This document shows positions 35,304 to 64,000 of a stretch of 64,000 bases of DNA, in pieces. The number at the start of each line of letters is the position of its first letter. Positions within the stretch are counted from its first letter, which is position 1. The notes below the pieces were generated by a model. The model did not search any database and was not told the DNA's origin. It saw only the letters and a program-made list of their open reading frames with translations. Location of the stretch: IMG/VR virus record IMGVR_UViG_3300033407_000004, positions 12,134 through 76,133 of that record. One strand, 5' to 3'. The DNA is from a virus (Duplodnaviria > Caudoviricetes). A program made the position numbers and the translations under genes.

Positions 35304-35361
35304 TTCTAACAAGCAGGTCCAGACGGACGCGAACACCGCGCCGCTGACCTGCGCGTTAAAC
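35304..35361 (+). repeat. attC-like site
   Basis: TTCTAAC-5-GGTC[C]AG[A]CGG...CCG-CTGACC-5-GTTAAAC. Confidence 0.85.
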
Positions 35362-35362
35362 A

Positions 35363-35767
35363 CTACCAGCGTTCCGAATCATCGAATCTGACAATGAGTT
35401 CGGAGGCTAATTTATAAAGCCATTCCATCATTGCCACATGCTGCTTCCAACTGTGTTTCCCGCAAAGATGAAGGTATCCGCCTTGCTGCTTTTTATCTCC
35501 CTCGCCTTCCTCTTCGCCAAACCATACATGACAACAGCCGTCCCACTTCATATATGCCGTGCAGTAAAGTTCCGTATCACAGGGCACATTTTCTTCGCCC
35601 CATGTAATTACTTCTTCAACCGTAACATTGATGTGCGTCTCGGATTTTTCTGTGATGGTAGCAATAAATCCGATGTATCCGTCAGGTCCGACGAAGTGTT
35701 TAACCAGGGGATCGACTCTCTCTGGCTTATTCTCGCTCGGCGCTGGTTTTGTTTGTTCTGTGCTCAT
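35363..35767 (-). CDS. Cassette gene, hypothetical
   Basis: Start codon and RBS lie inside the extended attC at 35698-35801. Confidence 0.65.
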   Translation of the reverse strand: MSTEQTKPAPSENKPERVDPLVKHFVGPDGYIGFIATITEKSETHINVTVEEVITWGEENVPCDTELYCTAYMKWDGCCHVWFGEEEGEGDKKQQGGYLHLCGKHSWKQHVAMMEWLYKLASELIVRFDDSERW

Positions 35768-35801
35768 CGGTTTCTCCTCGGGGGGCATCCCCGCGTTAGC
35801 T
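35698..35801 (+). repeat. Extended attC-like site containing RBS and start codon
   Basis: Minus: GCTAAC GCGGGGATG...GTC[G]ATCCCCTG GTTAAAC; homologous to 57006-57109. Confidence 0.75.
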
Positions 35802-35963
35802 CTTAACGTCCTTCTTCTTTCGGCGCGTTTCGGCTGATTTCTGAGCCATATCCCGCGCCTGCTCCGGTGTCAAAATACGGCGGGATTTGCTCCCGCCTTT
35901 GCTCGCCAATTCTTTTGCCGCTTTTTTGAGGCTGATTATGCCTCCGCAATGTGGGCACCTCAT
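35796..35963 (-). CDS. 55-aa basic Zn-knuckle protein, putative DNA-binding regulator
   Basis: Not in track: MRCPHCGG...SKGGSKSRRILTPEQARDMAQKSAETRRKK; TAATG coupling; stop in the TAAC box. Confidence 0.7.
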   Translation of the reverse strand: MRCPHCGGIISLKKAAKELASKGGSKSRRILTPEQARDMAQKSAETRRKKKDVKS

Positions 35964-36301
35964 TACTCGTCCTCGGCATCACGGGCAGTTTCGCGCTCAA
36001 AAATCAGGTCGCGTACCCGCTGCATAGACGATTCCGCGTCACCGTCCCAAAGCTCTGAGGACTCCTCTGCTGTAATAAGATCGTCCTCGATTGCATCCCG
36101 CTCCTCGCCAAGATACTCATAATAATCTGACCACCACTCGATAACTTGATCGGCGTCCTCGTGTCCCTCTACGTCTACCCGGCTCATCTCCCTGGAGCAA
36201 TCGCCGTACATTGACGTTTCGCTGCCCGGTGCAAACTCCTGCTCCCACTCCATTACTTTTTCCGCGAAATCTTGCATCTTTTTTGTCTTATACTCGCTCA
36301 T
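35963..36301 (-). CDS. Highly acidic 112-aa protein
   Basis: About 36 D/E versus 11 K/R; RBS GAGGAGG. Confidence 0.7.
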   Translation of the reverse strand: MSEYKTKKMQDFAEKVMEWEQEFAPGSETSMYGDCSREMSRVDVEGHEDADQVIEWWSDYYEYLGEERDAIEDDLITAEESSELWDGDAESSMQRVRDLIFERETARDAEDE

Positions 36302-36354
36302 TGCCGCCTCCTCAAGATGCGGGCCTTTTGTGGTCCCGTCTTACTCTTGAGACA

Positions 36355-36383
36355 ATATTAGCATAAGCGGTTATGCTTGTCAA
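36355..36383 (-). promoter_or_regulatory. Consensus promoter with palindromic operator
   Basis: TTGACA-17-TAATAT; the spacer carries AGCATAA-CCGC-TTATGCT. Confidence 0.75.
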
Positions 36384-36417
36384 GGGGTATTTGTAAAATA
36401 AATCTAAGTCAACACCG

Positions 36418-36475
36418 AGCTAACAAAACGATCCAGACGGGCGCTAAAATCGCGCCGCTGATCTGGACGTTAGCT
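36418..36475 (+). repeat. attC-like site
   Basis: AGCTAAC-5-GATC[C]AG[A]CGG...CCG-CTGATC-5-GTTAGCT. Confidence 0.85.
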
Positions 36476-37306
36476 CCTATAATCGTTCCATCTTACTGTT
36501 CTGAATACCTGCTTCGCGTTCACCCACCGGGCGAACCGGCGCTGATACTCGTTCCCCTTGTCCAGTGCCATAATGTACGGGTCGTATCCCATCGCGTCAA
36601 TTACCATGACCCTGTGCATATCCTCTTCCGGGGTCGTGTGTCCGATCATCACGTACACCATGACCTTTGACACTTTCGCGGTTTTCAGGTGGCAGAGGCC
36701 GCGCAATACTTCCGCTTCATGCTCGGGGTAATCCCATGCGAAGTGAAGATACCCTTCGCGCTTCAACTTCTTCACGGCCTGCGCCTGCTCCTCGCCTACG
36801 AGCCGAGCATCAAAGCCGTGTTCGATCACCGTCAACTTTGCGTCGGCGATCTCCGCGAACGTATCGCGCCAGTTCGGATCGGCAAACGTGTTATTGTTCA
36901 TCAGCATGATCTTACTGAACCTTGGTTCGTGGAAATCCCAAATCGAATAATGCGTTTCATCGTTCCGTTGCTTCGGGACAATGCAAAAATCACACGTTCG
37001 AGGGCAAGCCTTGTACGTGTAGCCCATCGAATAATCAATCTTCGGATACAACGTATAGTCCGGCCTCATCCGGTCCATCTCAGACGGCAATTTGCCCTCG
37101 GGATACTTCGGGCCTCCTACGAGATCCGCGACAGGATCAGGCGTACCCTGGAAGAGAACAGAGGCATACGTCAGGTCGGCGCTCGTCCCGGAGAACCACG
37201 GAAAATTCAGCGTCGTCTTGTCGCCCAACTTCCGATGATAGGCGCTGATTTTCATGGCCGCGAGGTTCGGCATTTTGCTATCGGGAGTATAGATATTTAC
37301 GAGCAT
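36470..37306 (-). CDS. Radical SAM-like Fe-S protein (cassette gene)
   Basis: PNLAAMKISAYHR, CPRTCDFC (CxxxCxxC); stop in the TAAC box. Confidence 0.8.
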   Translation of the reverse strand: MLVNIYTPDSKMPNLAAMKISAYHRKLGDKTTLNFPWFSGTSADLTYASVLFQGTPDPVADLVGGPKYPEGKLPSEMDRMRPDYTLYPKIDYSMGYTYKACPRTCDFCIVPKQRNDETHYSIWDFHEPRFSKIMLMNNNTFADPNWRDTFAEIADAKLTVIEHGFDARLVGEEQAQAVKKLKREGYLHFAWDYPEHEAEVLRGLCHLKTAKVSKVMVYVMIGHTTPEEDMHRVMVIDAMGYDPYIMALDKGNEYQRRFARWVNAKQVFRTVRWNDYRS

Positions 37307-37320
37307 AGTTTGTAAACCTG

Positions 37321-37377
37321 GGCTAACCAACGTATCGACGGGTCGCAAGACCCGCGCCCGTCATCCGGGCGTTATCG
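37321..37377 (+). repeat. attC-like site; 50 nt identical (inverted) to 57541-57590
   Basis: GGCTAAC...GTTATCG hairpin. Confidence 0.85.
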
Positions 37378-37746
37378 TGTCACATAGTTTAGGATTTCCA
37401 TTTTTAATTTTTTTATCTTTTTATTTGTTAATATATGCTCATTGTGTTCGTCGTTGCAGTCGGCCCATTCGAAAAAACAATATCGAGTTATCTTATTCTT
37501 ATTTTTTATACACTCTTGCAATATCGGAATGCACTGTGGATAAATCTTATATCGTTTTTTTACCATTTCATATGAAATTGGTACATCTCGCTCGGCAATT
37601 TCGTTATTATCCCAACAAACATCATTTATATGATCAAGCTCGCTGCATTTTTCTTGCGCAGCCGCAGTCGAAATCAAAAAAGCGACGATAACAAAAGCGT
37701 CGAGCAAGCGCCTATATTCTTTTTTCTGTTTCATTCGGTCCTCCAT
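37372..37746 (-). CDS. Cassette gene, Cys-rich probable secreted protein
   Basis: FVIVAFLISTAAA signal-like stretch; start inside attC 37686-37775. Confidence 0.55.
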   Translation of the reverse strand: MEDRMKQKKEYRRLLDAFVIVAFLISTAAAQEKCSELDHINDVCWDNNEIAERDVPISYEMVKKRYKIYPQCIPILQECIKNKNKITRYCFFEWADCNDEHNEHILTNKKIKKLKMEILNYVTR

Positions 37747-37775
37747 TTCCGGCGTTGCTCACGCCTCCGTTATCT
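37686..37775 (+). repeat. Extended attC-like site
   Basis: CGATAAC-5-CGT[C]GAGCAA[G]CGCC...GGCGTTGCTCACG-5-GTTATCT. Confidence 0.75.
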
Positions 37776-40630: not shown

Positions 40631-40732
40631 AACAAAATAACCGATCCATCCAGGAGTTTCCGAACGCAGTTTGGGGACCGCGTTCCCGCAGCTTTCGCTT
40701 TTGGGCATCCTGAATGAATCGGTTATTTTGTT
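40631..40732 (-). promoter_or_regulatory. Long hairpin in initiator 5' leader
   Basis: 15-bp perfect stem AACAAAATAACCGAT/ATCGGTTATTTTGTT with inner stems. Confidence 0.65.
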
Positions 40733-53830: not shown

Positions 53831-54276
53831 CGACCGAACACTTCCACGCCCGCACCGCCGCCGAGATCGACCAGTGCGCCAATTTTCTGAAGCTGGCGAT
53901 CCCTGCCCAAGGGTGGAGAATAACGTACACTCCGTGGAGGGAAAAGCGGTCGCTCAGTCAGAATTCGTTTATGCACGTAATATACCGGGACATCAGCAAC
54001 TACCTAATCAGCAAAGGCCGTTCAGAGTGGACGCCTGGAAAAGTCAAATTGATGCTTAAGAACAAGTACCTTGGCTGGACGGAAGTTGAGTTCACCGATG
54101 TTGTGACCGGGCAAGTAACCACCAGAGAAGTGCTGAAATCATCGTCAGCATTGGATGTAGGGGCGGCAAACCACTTCATAACTGAGATCATAGAATGGGC
54201 GGCCAGCATCGGCATTGAGATCAAAGTACCCGCTGAGTGCGAGTACCGGGATGTGTTGAATACGCAGAATAGGTAA
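53827..54276 (+). CDS. NinB/YbcN-like protein
   Basis: KRSLSQNSFMH, KLMLKNKYLG, FITEIIEWAA; stop in the first attC box. Confidence 0.8.
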   Translation: MTTEHFHARTAAEIDQCANFLKLAIPAQGWRITYTPWREKRSLSQNSFMHVIYRDISNYLISKGRSEWTPGKVKLMLKNKYLGWTEVEFTDVVTGQVTTREVLKSSSALDVGAANHFITEIIEWAASIGIEIKVPAECEYRDVLNTQNR

Positions 54277-54347
54277 CGTGCGCATGACGCGCCGCAAGGC
54301 GTGTCGCTGTCGATGCGCTGGTTAAAATCCAGCGCAAGAAAGGACAC

Positions 54348-56406
54348 ATGAGAAACGATTCTCTTTATAAATTTATGGCAGAAGAAATTCAACAAGCCAA
54401 AACGGAGAAACAAGCCGAAGTCATCGCCGGGAACATTGTCAAAGAGGCACTTTGGCAGGGAGAGCTTACAGCATACCGAAAGCTCTTGTCACATGTTCAT
54501 GCCGAAAGCGGAACGAATGACTTTCTTCCCTTGTTCGGAAAATTTTAACAATGAGTTGTTCGGTGCGGTAGCATCCGAACGAACGACTCGTTAGGCCATT
54601 TCACAGGGAGGGAATAAGCAATGTATAAACCGTACAAGCCAGAAGAAAAGATTGTTGACCGTGCTGTCGAGCTTTGGAAACGAATGCTGAAAAATCCGAA
54701 ATTCGACAATGGAGATTCAAGCGTTAACGGGTTTTTCGCTTCTTCGATGGCTAAGATGATCCCGAACAATGCCACGGATGAAGTTCTTCAGGCATTCGGG
54801 GACAACCTGAAAGCCGCGCTGATGAACCCAGACCCGGAATATAAACAAGAATTTTTCCACTCTTCGTTGGGCGTCGATTACGGACCCGACAAGGTTCTTC
54901 ACGAAGCCGCTGAAAAGGCCGGTCTAAAAATGGAGTTCCCCTGGAAAACTACCATGTCCCTTTGGACTGAGTACGTTTCGGTTTCGGCGGGGTACGGAGC
55001 CGATCGCGTTTATCATTACCCGTTGGCCGATGGGCGGTGGCTGATGACGACGCTTTGCGGTTCTGATATTTCAAAGATCATAGCATATTGTGAAGGCAAA
55101 GAACTGGCGTTCGAGATCGAGGGTCAAAAGGTCTAACACCAATTTGACGCGCAAGCGTCAGCGCAGCCGCAGTCGAAATTTTGGTTATGCGTGCTTTCAA
55201 TCTTAACTTCATAGGAGCAGACAAATGAAAACAATAGTTGTCAGATGGGTAAAAGAAGAAACATTCGGTTACGATAAAGCCATGCGAGTTGAATTTTCTT
55301 GCCATGAACGGTTTGTAGTTGGCAGTCGCTTTGACTTTGGATTTTTCAGCATAGCCACAGACGAGGGATACACAATTGTTTCATTACCGATGGAAAAGGA
55401 TTTAGACGCATAACGCGGAGGTAACGATGCGGAGCGAAGCGGAGCAATCAGTTGACCGACTGGTTGTGTGCGATGTATGCAAACAGGAAATACAGGAAAG
55501 CGCCATGACCGATGTTGATGATCTTGAGCCGAACGGCGATCATAAGACGTTGCTCGTTTGTCCGATGTGCATTGATGCCATGCAGCCGGTACATGAAAGC
55601 ATGATGCAAGTAACGCGAGAAATGGCATGTGACGCAGGGGACCGGAGCATGGAAGGTTCGTGGATTAAGTGGTAGTACACAACACGAACATGACCCGCTT
55701 TTGACGGGTCGATGTTCTGGTTGGACGCGGGTTTTGTCCAGCCAGAACGGAAAGGAATTAATTATGGATAAGCGGCAGCAATACGGATACATCAAAAATC
55801 AAATATGCCTTTTCTGCGGAAACATCGAGGACATAGAACCGGACGTGGAGCGCCCGTCATGCGGCGTTTGTGAAGTTGTGGGCAGCGAGGTTGAAACATA
55901 CGGGCATTGCTCGGAGTGGACGGAAATTAGATAGCGTCCAACGTCCGGGTCAGTCGCGCGTCTTGCGCGACGATCTGGACACGGTGGTTAGTCTCGGGGT
56001 TAATTCTATGAACGACAAAAAAAGAGCCGCACTCGATACGCTGATTGATAAAGTAAAACACGCCTATGAGCTTTTGGAGAACATGGACCACGACACGCTT
56101 GCCATGTTGATATTAGATTCTCCTTCCATTCGAGAATACTACGCTACTAAGAAGAAAGCAATGTCGGTTTGTATTTACTGCGGTATGGCAATAGAGCACC
56201 CGGAAGACCCAGAAAAAATCGCAGAGATTCATCATGCCCTTGTAAAGCATGATGCGCGTTGTCCTCAGAATCCGTTTGTTTTTGCGTTGAAACAGGTTAG
56301 ACAAATTGCCAAAGACGGACGGGACTGGAACCCCGGACATTTCTGTGAATCTCGGAGCAAGATGCAGTCAATCGTTGACCGGTGCGACAATGTTTTAAGA
56401 GACTAA
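54348..56406 (+). CDS. Six cassette genes (54348-54548, 54621-55136, 55225-55413, 55427-55675, 55764-55934, 56008-56406)
   Basis: One ORF per attC interval; several stops fall in TAAC boxes; products unrecognised. Confidence 0.7.
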
Positions 56407-56490
56407 CGCCTGAGTTGTGGGGCGGGCCGCTTGCGGCACGTCCCGCACGAACGACGGGTTATACGGCTGGCGGTTACTACGGAGAACAGG

Positions 56491-57306
56491 ATGCACAACT
56501 TGCAAAAAAATATGAGCAACGCCACTTTGCCGCCAGTGCTTGACGCCTGCTGCGGTAGCCGGATGTTTTGGTTTGACCGCAAGGACGACCGGGCGACGTT
56601 CGTGGACAAGCGCCGGGAGCGGCACACGCTGCCCGACATTTCCAGCAAGGGCGGAAGCCGCGAACTGGTAATTGACCCTGACCACTTGGCAGACTTCACC
56701 GACCTGCCTTTCCCGTCCGACACGTTTGCGCTGGTGGTTTTCGATCCACCGCACTTCGAGCGCAACGGCGCGACCGGATGGGTGGGGTTGAAGTACGGCA
56801 CGCTGAAAGGCGATTGGCAGTCGATGCTGCGCGAGGGATTTGCCGAATGCTTCCGCGTGCTGCGGCCTGAAGGGGTTTTGATTTTCAAGTGGTGCGAGGA
56901 CGAGATACCCGTTTCGCGGATTCTTGCACTGACACCGGAGCGCCCGCTTTTTGGCCACCGCAGCGGCAAGCAGCAGAAGACGCATTGGGTGACGTTTATG
57001 AAGCCGTATAACGCGGGGATGACCCGCACAGGAGAACCAATGAGCGACGAAAAAACCATGAACGAAACAAATGAGAATAAACCAGCCGGAGTCGATCCCC
57101 TGGTTATGACAATCGCGGATATAAGAGAATCTCTTGGAGTAGGACACAAGCCGATGCTTTCCGAACTGCCGGGCATTTGCAATGAATTTCGATTACTACT
57201 TTCAGAGGCTCGGTCATTTTGCCTTCGCATGGATTGCGACGGAGATCCACTGAATGACGATCTGGCGAGACGCATACAAATAGCTTTACGGATAACGCGA
57301 GGATGA
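56491..57306 (+). CDS. Class I SAM methyltransferase (DPPH) read through an attC into a second gene starting at 57040
   Basis: VLDACCGSRMFW, VVFDPPH, LRPEGVLIFKW, HWVTFMK, then YNAGMT (attC) and MSDEK. Confidence 0.8.
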   Translation: MHNLQKNMSNATLPPVLDACCGSRMFWFDRKDDRATFVDKRRERHTLPDISSKGGSRELVIDPDHLADFTDLPFPSDTFALVVFDPPHFERNGATGWVGLKYGTLKGDWQSMLREGFAECFRVLRPEGVLIFKWCEDEIPVSRILALTPERPLFGHRSGKQQKTHWVTFMKPYNAGMTRTGEPMSDEKTMNETNENKPAGVDPLVMTIADIRESLGVGHKPMLSELPGICNEFRLLLSEARSFCLRMDCDGDPLNDDLARRIQIALRITRG

Positions 57307-57366
57307 GACGCGGCTTTCCGCGTCGTTCTCGATCCTCTGGTTAAAATCCAGAGGGAAAGGAAAGGC

Positions 57367-57923
57367 ATGAACGAGCAGGAGAAAAAAGAAGTCGAAGAGA
57401 GCATAACTTTATCAGAAGAAATTGTCCGTGCAGCTTGTATTAAGGTGCTCACAGATAAGCATTTTGAACTTGCGAAACGAAGCTATCCGCCGCCAAAAAT
57501 CCTTTTGGATTTGGCACAGGAGATGAGGGAACTTAAATTTTAACGCCCGGATGACGGGCGCGGGTCTTGCGACCCGTCGATACGTTGGTTGGACTCAGAG
57601 GTGATCGAATGGCATGGACATATTTGAAATTCAATAAAGCCGGGAACATCTTGAAACGCTCCCCGAAATTGCCGGGCGAGAGACACGCATACCTCGGGTT
57701 TGATCTTCTTCGGATGATGACCGTGATCGGGTATACCGAGCGGGGCGGGTTCAGTTCGTTCCTCGGACCGAACGTAAACGACGATTGCAATATTGTCGCC
57801 TGGGCTCCGCTGTCTGAAAAAGAGAGCGCCGACATTGATGTGATCCAGAAAAATTGTCCCTTTTATCCATGGGACGATGGAGATACATGCGACGCATCGG
57901 AAATACCGCTGTTGATTCGATGA
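57367..57923 (+). CDS. Two cassette genes (57367-57543, 57609-57923)
   Basis: RBS present; bounded by attC boxes. Confidence 0.6.
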
Positions 57924-57943
57924 GTCCAACCAGGCATTAGATC
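57924..57943 (-). promoter_or_regulatory. attI-like recombination site
   Basis: Minus: GATCTAAT-GCCTG-GTTGGAC; no attC hairpin; terminates the array. Confidence 0.5.
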
Positions 57944-57963
57944 GTCTTTAAAAGGTATCGAGT

Positions 57964-63290: not shown

Positions 63291-64000
63291 TTACCGCTTA
63301 GTATAGTGAAAAATAATATCTTTGATTGTTACCGACAACGCGCTTGCCGCATTATTTGTTTCCATCACCCTTGTAACTATCGAAATTGCGGATGAAGAAT
63401 TAAGCCATGCAGGGTTATCGAAGGTTTTTGTAAGCACATGATTTTCATGTGTTGACCCGTCACTATTAGACCTTTTTGCTGCTGTATCGTGGTTAGAGTC
63501 ATAGCTCATTGATAAATTCGACGGGATTGATGGCGCGGAACCGTCAGATGGCGCTGTTCTCGTTCTTACGGTAATCCCAATATCGTCACCTGGGTCAGAG
63601 TTTGTTATATTATATACCATGGTTACTGAGGTTGGCATTATCCCATATGAGGTAGTAGTAACCATAGAGACAGGAATCTCTATGACGTGAAAATGCTCCG
63701 TGTTGTTTGCTGCATCTCTTGCTAATGAGGGTAAATAGTCGGCGTCGTAAGTTCTTGTCCAAGTACCTGAAACAGCCGTTCCTAAAAGGCCAATTACCGA
63801 AAGACTGGCCGTTTCATCGTATCCCGAGAAATCGCCATAGTACCGATACCCATTATCTGTTATTGTGACCACTGCCCCTTCGTCTCTATTCCCTTGATAC
63901 CAAAAACTGTCATTTGCCGTTAAGGATATCACTGAAAGACCCGTGTAGTTTGATCCAATAAATGAATTAATAAATTTGATTTTTGGTTGATAGGAACCTA
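63291..64000 (-). CDS. C-terminal part of a probable tail spike/receptor-binding protein
   Basis: Frame open to the window edge; Ser/Thr/Asn-rich beta composition; AT-rich. Confidence 0.55.
   Translation of the reverse strand, partial: GSYQPKIKFINSFIGSNYTGLSVISLTANDSFWYQGNRDEGAVVTITDNGYRYYGDFSGYDETASLSVIGLLGTAVSGTWTRTYDADYLPSLARDAANNTEHFHVIEIPVSMVTTTSYGIMPTSVTMVYNITNSDPGDDIGITVRTRTAPSDGSAPSIPSNLSMSYDSNHDTAAKRSNSDGSTHENHVLTKTFDNPAWLNSSSAISIVTRVMETNNAASALSVTIKDIIFHYTKR

Follow-up and report, generated by a model that had tools for sequence, protein, structure and literature searches.

Integron cassettes are taught as promoterless open reading frames (ORFs) that have an attC recombination site behind them and are read from Pc. 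In canonical cassettes, the 3' ends and stop codons of the ORFs commonly overlap the attC. Such sites are recognized by an inverse core site RYYYAAC and a core site GTTRRRY, with an imperfect hairpin, R and L boxes, an unpaired spacer of about 5 nucleotides (nt) in each arm, and a variable terminal structure. The bottom strand is the one that is recombined; its extrahelical bases, G16 and a T at 20 or 23/24, belong to the arm that faces the AAC triplet (Nivina et al. 2016, PMC5027507). Clusters of attC sites without an integrase (CALINs) have been published from phages, as have phage integrons (Qi, Rajabal, Ghaly, Gillings, and Tetu 2023, PMC9892861).

Recombination sites of integrons can also take part in translation. 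According to the part of PMC8876359 that cites Hanau-Bercot 2002, ORF-11 and ORF-18 of attI1 have a Shine-Dalgarno sequence (SD) and an ATG within the site, and the short frame that begins there crosses into the adjacent cassette and supports its translation. The part that cites Jacquier 2009 describes attC hairpins in mRNA as barriers to ribosomes and short ORFs within attC as relieving the block. Fused cassettes, such as blaGES-1/aacA4 and gcuF1-blaOXA-28, contain in-frame read-through fusion ORFs that result from attC loss (PMC4670013, PMC8876359). A search of the literature found no paper describing reversed genes with starts inside their own attC.

Here we analyze two attC arrays in the record of a soil phage and the probable translation starts that lie inside four of their sites. 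Because the phage genes are reversed relative to attC, it is their 5' end (SD, ATG, and leader) that overlaps the site. As in the canonical overlap, coding sequence and recombination site share bases; for example, in the bacterial array L053 the GGTTA box of an attC contains position 1983, the last of a minus-strand ORF. The phage design is the mirror image of this, with the stop given by the TAA/C box of the neighbor (the slash marks the point of crossover). The arrays resemble the published phage CALINs (PMC9892861) in being attC arrays without intI and in carrying methyltransferase cassettes, and relatives of the present phage have complete integrons with intI. They differ in that the published arrays are oriented like bacterial ones; genes on the bottom strand and starts in attC are not mentioned there, and the term "start codon" has no occurrence in that text. 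The likeness to ORF-11 and ORF-18, as these are described in the cited part of PMC8876359, is the SD and ATG inside a recombination site. However, ORF-11 lies in attI, spans the crossover, and serves any arriving cassette by coupling, whereas the phage start lies in attC, appears to be the gene's own, and does not span the crossover, which polarity puts upstream at TAA/C. Likewise, the barrier sites and short ORFs described in that source are 3' of their own gene and act on the next cassette, whereas the phage site would be the 5' leader of its own gene, with a coding 3' arm. The read-through of fused cassettes has a counterpart here in a methyltransferase-leader-ORF fusion, but in the phage the attC is intact and lies in the reading frame. 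What separates the phage sites from the known systems is that the site is an attC, that it belongs to the gene it starts, and that its arm is coding sequence.

Two opposed arrays of attC sites

The window, by which we mean the whole stretch of 64,000 nt that was analyzed, is part of a 76-kb IMG/VR phage record with repeated ends and contains 15 attC sites in two opposed arrays. The right-hand array (54271-57594), identified by box complementarity and model matches, has its coding strand on the plus strand and holds 10 sites, whose 5' boxes lie at 54274, 54546, 55134, 55411, 55680, 55939, 56404, 57009, 57293, and 57541. It is closed at 57923-57960 (plus strand) by an orphan 5' box, AGTCCAAC, that has no hairpin. 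The left-hand array (35304-37775) has its coding strand on the minus strand and holds five sites, at 37775-37686, 37377-37321, 36475-36418, 35801-35698, and 35361-35304. A search of the record with an integron-integrase model returned no match and no weaker candidate, and a megablast search of 34000-58500 against GenBank phages gave no match.

Between neighboring sites, 7-11 nt of the 5' box are an exact reverse complement of the 3' box that comes before it, which is the signature of units joined by exchange inside a conserved triplet. There are nine such links in the right array and four in the left, the cassette of site h being the exception with 5 nt, and related phage arrays have the same signature. 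Alignment A2 comprises 25 short sites, taken from this window and from eight further IMG/VR contigs. In its consensus, the TAAC/GTTA boxes are followed by a 5x5 internal loop and by helices of 4, 3, and 3 bp, with a bulged G between the first and the second and a bulged T between the second and the third; compensatory changes occur in 10 of 14 pairs. AAC and GTT do not vary among the 25 aligned sites, most of which have T before AAC and A after GTT. The four sites with internal starts (the extended sites d, h, and L1 and the short site R4) have boxes of the form TAAC...GTTA or GTTG. The core sequences, hairpin, extrahelical bases, and box complementarity expected of attC are all found in this family of sites; fitted by hand, h and L1 agree with 14/14 consensus pairs and d with 12/14.

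A covariance model built from A2 recovered 12 sites within the window, each of them on the coding strand. R4, which is outside the training set, scored 32.3 bits (E 1.6e-5), and h scored 42.5 bits at full length on the plus strand in the genome-search run and was not listed with the filters off. Sites d and L1 were not detected by the model because their loops are large. One 50-nt attC core is 100% identical at 37374-37325 and 57541-57590; its flanks differ on both sides in all six copies, found here and in four other contigs, so the core is uninformative as to which end was exchanged. A Gammaproteobacteria genome has a large chromosomal array made up of the motif of this site family, which is also present in Vibrio, Shewanella, Competibacter, and Nitrospirota contigs. 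We conclude that d, h, L1, and R4 are real attC sites, as the initial annotation had proposed; the consensus pairs and the cassette boxes bear this out.

Polarity of the sites and the point of crossover

The 3' arm of the coding strand carries the bulged G, 8 nt before GTT and at position 16 when bases are counted from the outer end of the GTT box; the bulged T (A in d and h) is 3 bp further in on the same arm. Since these bulges are opposite AAC, with G16 on the 3' arm, the coding strand corresponds to the bottom strand. In the bacterial array OZ257136.1 (L053, L070, and L071), the equivalent strand is the one without most of the ORFs. Two related phage contigs, G004 and G001, encode IntI proteins that score 436 and 292 bits, above the TIGR02249 cut-off. 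In G004, intI follows the array on its downstream side and reads in the direction of the coding strand and the cassette genes; G001, with its array at the contig end and intI at the start, has a layout like that of G004 only if the contig is circular. In the classical integron, it is the bottom strand that holds this position relative to intI. The canonical arrangement, with genes on the top strand and pointing away from intI, was not what we found. The orphan box AGTCCAAC is at the position expected of the attI junction on the bottom strand, and G004 has a comparable orphan GCATAAC box just upstream of intI.

The reading frames give further indications. For the methyltransferase that precedes h, alignments with homologues stop at query residues 191-196; residue 194 is the AAC codon. 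Its closest homologues, P0034, P0043, and P0060, have three distinct tails beyond KPNA, as they should if the cassette behind AA/C is not the same in each. In the left arm four ORFs, and in the right arm several, have the TAA of the following box as their stop codon. The bulges, the bacterial array, the layout of the IntI contigs, and the ends of the methyltransferase homologues all agree on a crossover at TAA/C, and by these marks the phage cassette genes are assigned to the attC bottom strand. With the crossover there, each attC forms the 5' end of its own cassette, and a start codon in its loop would travel with its gene. The initial annotation had taken the site for a portable translation-initiation module, a claim that does not fit a polarity in which the crossover is at the AAC end and site and gene make up one cassette.

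Probable translation starts inside the sites

Sites d (35698-35801, minus strand; AAC 35797-95, GTT 35704-02) and h (57006-57109, plus strand; AAC 57010-12, GTT 57103-05) each measure 98 nt from TAAC to GTTA on the coding strand, with 5' arms TAACGCGGGGATG and 3' arms GTCGATCCCCTGGTTA. The loop of h contains an SD, AGGAG, at 57030-34 and an ATG at 57040, that of d an SD, GAGGAG, at 35779-74 and an ATG at 35767. In both, 22 codons follow, ending in VDPLV, that run in frame through the 3' arm into the downstream ORF; the leader peptides are MSDEKTMNETNENKPAGVDPLV in h and MSTEQTKPAPSENKPERVDPLV in d. The two sites, whose common stretches had been noted before, are homologous, with 69 of 104 positions identical in an ungapped comparison. 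Identity is 28/40 in the 5' arm, SD, and ATGAGC and 30/37 in GAGAATAA.CCAG and the 3' arm, and only 11/27 (41%), near random, in the middle of the loop. The arm motif TAACGCGRGGATG has 10 matches where 2.8 are expected, a number reached in 0 of 100 shuffles, and CGATCCYCTGGTTA has 5 matches where 0.7 are expected. BLASTP gave no alignment between the protein bodies behind d and h at E<=100, which agrees with the earlier description of these leaders as standing on otherwise unrelated proteins. At cassette d, matched boxes enclose attC and gene. The 3' box before it (GTTAGCTC) has its reverse complement in the 5' box of d, and the 3' box of d, GTTAAACA, has its match in the 5' box that follows.

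The gene of cassette d (35363-35767, minus strand) encodes a 134-amino-acid protein of the KWDGC[CS]H...HLCG family, for which 33 homologues were found. In alignment A1 their heads are variable and 10-30 residues long, and the conserved domain, around DGYxxF, begins directly after the GTT of the attC; no in-frame start was found between GTT and the conserved core of d. P0001, which is 88% identical to the d protein, retains the leader MSIEQAKPELNENKPEGVDPLV; although 6 of the 22 residues have changed, the leader is still in frame and open. The distant viral homologues (L003-L034) were found to have no attC upstream. At its start the leader of h resembles the leader of P0002 (MDDEKGMNET), and at its end it resembles that of P0001 (NENKPEGVDPLV). 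Since the h leader resembles the heads of P0002 and P0001, both of the d family, we take the leader shared by d and h to be the N-terminus of the KWDGCCH family, as judged from these alignments.

Two further sites contain starts, both pointed out by the initial annotation. L1 (37686-37775, minus strand; AAC 37771-69, GTT 37692-90) has a stem of about 24 bp closing a 38-nt loop with an SD, GGAGGA, and an ATG at 37734. Its peptide, MKQKKEYRRLLDAFVIVAFLISTAAAQ, looks by eye like a signal peptide, with a charged start in the loop, a hydrophobic core, and an AxA motif; its 3' arm encodes LLDAFV, and its 3' box GTTATCGT matches the next 5' box. A homologue search with the L1 protein recovered only the query itself. 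R4 (55408-55469, plus strand) has its SD, GGAGG, in the 5' arm at 55417-21 and its ATG at 55427. Its gene, starting MRSEAEQSVDRLV, encodes an 82-amino-acid CxxC...CxxC protein whose first CxxC lies two codons after GTT, and no alternative in-frame start was found before that motif. PHROGs and Pfam gave nothing for the products of d, h, L1, and R4.

The spacing of SD and ATG is 4-6 nt in all four sites, and the SDs are strong. The whole start region, with the first 12-22 codons or so, is inside the site in 4 of the 15 cassettes; the other 11 have their own SD and ATG behind GTT. These cases form part of a continuum. In the window and in 30 sites of eight related contigs, most genes have an SD and ATG 7-50 nt behind GTT; L040c has the SD in the 3' arm and the ATG directly after GTT; and the methyltransferase of L038 has a TTG start in the 3' arm of its attC, behind GGGAG, and ends with the TAA of the next box, its N-terminal length being that predicted from homologues. 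The loop start would be the only credible one at three of the four sites: at L1 because the signal-like peptide needs its charged start, which is in the loop; at R4 because the first CxxC comes two codons after GTT; and at d because the conserved domain follows GTT directly and P0001 keeps the leader in frame. We infer that the loop ATGs are the starts actually used.

A codon-degenerate pattern of the d/h leader had no match in IMG/VR and none in the JGI metagenomes, and a scan of IMG/VR with a pattern of the d/h-type site gave two chance matches, in coding sequence only. A wider pattern matched at least 118 stretches in JGI; among the matches listed, 18 passed an arm-pairing filter, almost all of them ordinary genes, and only L256, which is cut by the contig end, is a possible loop-start site.

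Predicted folds of the sites were compared as single-stranded DNA and as RNA. As DNA, the short sites and L1 fold as attC, with z values from -2.3 to -4.6 (L1: -15.95 kcal/mol, z -2.3). In d and h (z -1.4 and -1.9), local hairpins win over the attC fold, and the stems are of about 12 bp around a loop of about 60 nt. Because their stems are short and their predicted folds weak, d and h may no longer recombine. As RNA, L1 presents its SD and AUG in the open 38-nt loop, with a mean unpaired probability of 0.85. The long-range stem of d and h is absent from the predicted minimum-energy fold, and their start regions have unpaired probabilities of 0.29 and 0.56, within the range of cassettes with starts outside attC. 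The earlier suggestion that the hairpin could gate translation finds no support in these predictions, with an open start region in L1 and no long-range stem in the predicted minimum-energy fold of the other two sites. Once it has initiated, the ribosome still has to unwind the 3' arm, which might matter.

Site h and the competing explanations

The DNA methyltransferase gene in front of h (56491-57009, plus strand; PHROG 954, E 1e-67) has no in-frame stop and runs through CCG TAT AAC into the site, the frame being open from 56431 to 57306. The 5' arm consensus, TAACGNNNNNATGA, has stops in two frames, TAA and the TGA of ATGA, and the methyltransferase uses the third and misses both. The result is one 291-codon ORF that passes from the methyltransferase through h to a TGA in the next attC. 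The read-through is no assembly slip, since a second soil sample yielded an 879-nt contig that agrees with 56469-57347 at every position; the other contigs assembled from sequencing runs were short, and joints were not seen in them. Behind h is an ORF of 66 codons (57106-57306, plus strand), in frame with the h leader and with the methyltransferase, that has an ATG at 57106 directly after GTT and its TGA stop in the 5' arm of the next attC. Neither this ATG nor the open frame from the upstream methyltransferase was recorded in the initial annotation. A homologue search with the h product found none, a tblastn search gave no hits either, and as a homologue is lacking the 66-codon ORF may perhaps be no gene at all. 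The nearest SD-like GGAG is 14 nt before the post-GTT ATG, which is too far to serve it. Because the ATG directly after GTT is an alternative and the 66-codon ORF is without a homologue, the case for the loop start appears weaker at h than at d, L1, and R4.

Site h looks like a chimera, in which an attC and head of the d family would have been joined at GTT to the unrelated 66-codon ORF. The break between d and h falls exactly at GTTA, and the chimeric reading agrees with the poor box match at this cassette, where the 3' box and the terminal box are complementary over 5 nt only, as against 7-11 nt in the other cassettes. The join could have come about by a rare top-strand exchange or by illegitimate recombination, both of which are possible.

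Taken together, the data probably describe reversed, integrase-less cassette arrays in which attC serves as the leader of its own gene, with four starts inside the sites and with h as a chimera. The analysis itself establishes the family of sites and its polarity, the boundaries of the cassettes, the open frames, and the N-termini of the homologues. On this account, the two arrays consist of integron cassettes, without an integrase, that carry every gene on the attC bottom strand. An IntI-type crossover would take place in the TAA/C box, at the 5' end of each site on the coding strand, and the phage or its host would presumably supply the IntI that moves the cassettes. A cassette would then have the order C-attC-(5' UTR)-ORF-TAA, in which the leader region of a gene is its own attC. 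Four cassettes among the 15 would have had their translation start shifted into the site. Their SD and ATG lie in the unpaired loop, except that R4 has its SD in the 5' arm; translation would run on through the 3' arm and the GTT box, as VDPLV, VDRLV, or LDAFV, and the real protein domain would begin just after GTT. Such an arrangement would be tolerated because what it affects at the N-terminus is either a variable leader that the protein can spare or the charged part with which a signal peptide begins. The attC and head of one family (KWDGCCH) would be the common ancestor of sites d and h, the chimera at h being a later event.

A different reading makes the attC, with its SD, ATG, and leader, part of the upstream unit, so that exchange at G/TT would supply starts to bodies that have none. 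The shared head of d and h on unrelated bodies, with the break exactly after GTTA, speaks for this reading, as does P0002, a member of the d family with an h-like leader start and a different end. Top-strand recombination, at the other AAC, is also known and is 1,000-10,000 times less frequent (PMC5027507), and ORF-11 of attI1 is a precedent for a start region in a recombination site. However, four tests of polarity put the normal crossover at the other end, and the d cassette has matched boxes around attC plus gene. A split at GTT would cut the signal-like peptide of L1 between its charged start and its hydrophobic core, 11 of 15 cassettes have an SD and ATG of their own behind GTT, and among the matches listed from IMG/VR and JGI contigs the d/h leader did not turn up again on another gene. 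We regard this reading as unlikely. A weak form of portability is kept alive by h itself, a d-family head on an unrelated body with the break at GTTA. In a variant to which we would give slightly more credence, though still little, both ends of attC are used, and a rare exchange at the GTT end pairs attC-borne heads with other bodies in frame; h and the mixed leaders of P0001 and P0002 would be its products. If so, phage integrons would shuffle heads and bodies, a site-specific form of domain shuffling that yields fusions such as the methyltransferase-leader-ORF66.

The loop ORFs might instead not be translated at all, with starts at or after GTT or with no genes present, and the leaders would then be by-products of attC constraint and of gene calling. 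The ATG directly after GTT in h, the absence of homologues of the 66-codon ORF and the L1 protein, and the 41% identity of the d and h leaders in their middle would be in keeping with this. Yet d, L1, and R4 have no usable start after GTT that precedes the essential parts of the protein, all four sites have a strong SD at 4-6 nt, and the post-GTT ATG of h has its nearest GGAG 14 nt away, which is too far. P0001, moreover, keeps the d leader in frame through its 6 changes in 22 residues, and the in-attC start of the L038 methyltransferase matches the N-terminal length of its homologues. Untranslated loops thus seem a little less probable even than a portable start. That the elements are not integron sites, but phage regulatory hairpins (terminators or processing sites) or miniature repeats that resemble attC, is very improbable. 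The record has no integrase, and alternative local hairpins can form, one in the 5' arm with a GATGA loop and one by pairing of the 3' arm with CCAG. But the geometry is that of canonical attC, G16 and T20 included, the box signature of cassettes is present, and no run of T follows the hairpins; the same family of sites fills a bacterial chromosomal array and adjoins true IntI genes in related phages.

The reversed array is also present in a related phage contig that has its own IntI, and no new recombination chemistry is shown by these data. Under the preferred account of reversed cassettes, the reversal turns the recombination site into the 5' leader of each gene and sometimes into coding sequence. 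The sequence of attC would then be constrained by SD, ATG, and codons, and the N-termini of the proteins by attC. Gene callers and integron finders will misplace such starts and miss sites with long loops, and the stop codons of the 5' arm account for some cassette genes reading into their neighbor. With this design, the interplay of attC structure and translation can be put to a concrete test.

Arms and core of the attC sites

The 5' arms of the attC sites all carry the consensus TAACGNNNNNATGA (57009-57022 in the extended site at 57006-57109), which holds a TAA and a TGA and so stops translation in two of the three frames. One or other of these codons ends many of the upstream ORFs. The methyltransferase cassette gene (56491-57009, +) enters the 5' arm at 57009-57022 in the third frame and reads through it. 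At two homologous short sites, 54311-54338 and 57330-57357 (+), the first bases of the downstream leader offer the 3' arm a second pairing partner, as GCGCTGG-TTAAAAT-CCAGCGC and CCTCTGG-TTAAAAT-CCAGAGG, respectively. Covariation at these sites is three-way, involving the 5' arm in addition to the 3' arm and leader, and the alternative hairpin between 3' arm and leader is the one used in the predicted minimum-energy fold of the RNA.

The two arms of the phage share a 50-nt attC core with 100% identity (37325-37374 and 57541-57590). Copies with 0-1 changes are also present in four further phage contigs (loci L039, L040, L041 and L045), and the genes on both sides of the core differ at every occurrence.

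Left-array cassettes and a separate palindrome

The product of one left-array cassette, 36470-37306 (-), has a radical SAM domain (PHROG 9298, E 3e-52); no obvious SD precedes the likely ATG of this gene. The cassette behind the attC at 36475-36418 contains a strong candidate sigma-70-like promoter at 36383-36355 (-), with a 10/12 match (TTGACA, 17 nt, TG-TAATAT), 5' of a 112-aa ORF (35963-36301). This cassette may have a promoter of its own.

A near-perfect palindrome of 86 nt, TAACCGAT...ATCGGTTA, lies at 40639-40724, with a minus-strand ORF on either side. On each strand the arms pair strongly with one another (duplex energies of -19.6 and -26.7 kcal/mol), and the attC covariance model reported no match to the palindrome.

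Ends of the record

Two short motifs are common to both ends of the whole record, at 50 to ~130 and 76055-76133 (63922-64000 of the window), ~76,005 bases apart. These motifs suggest that the ends overlap and that the genome is complete, a reading at odds with the IMG/VR entry, which gives a linear record with 89% completeness.

The right-array end and related phage integrons

The closing element of the right array, at 57923-57960 (+), is an orphan AGTCCAAC box that lacks a hairpin. Downstream of it, in place of intI, are an 89-aa ORF and an HNH gene; a comparable orphan GCATAAC box lies immediately 5' of intI in the related phage contig G004.

A true integron integrase adjoins arrays of the window's attC family in two related IMG/VR phage contigs, G004 (locus L183, G004:C1, 2557-3498 and 6139-8912) and G001 (loci L184/L185). 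The cassette genes and intI point the same way in G004, and in G001 only if that contig is circular. G004 and G001 are complete phage integrons in which every cassette is reversed, the G001 layout again holding only for a circular contig.
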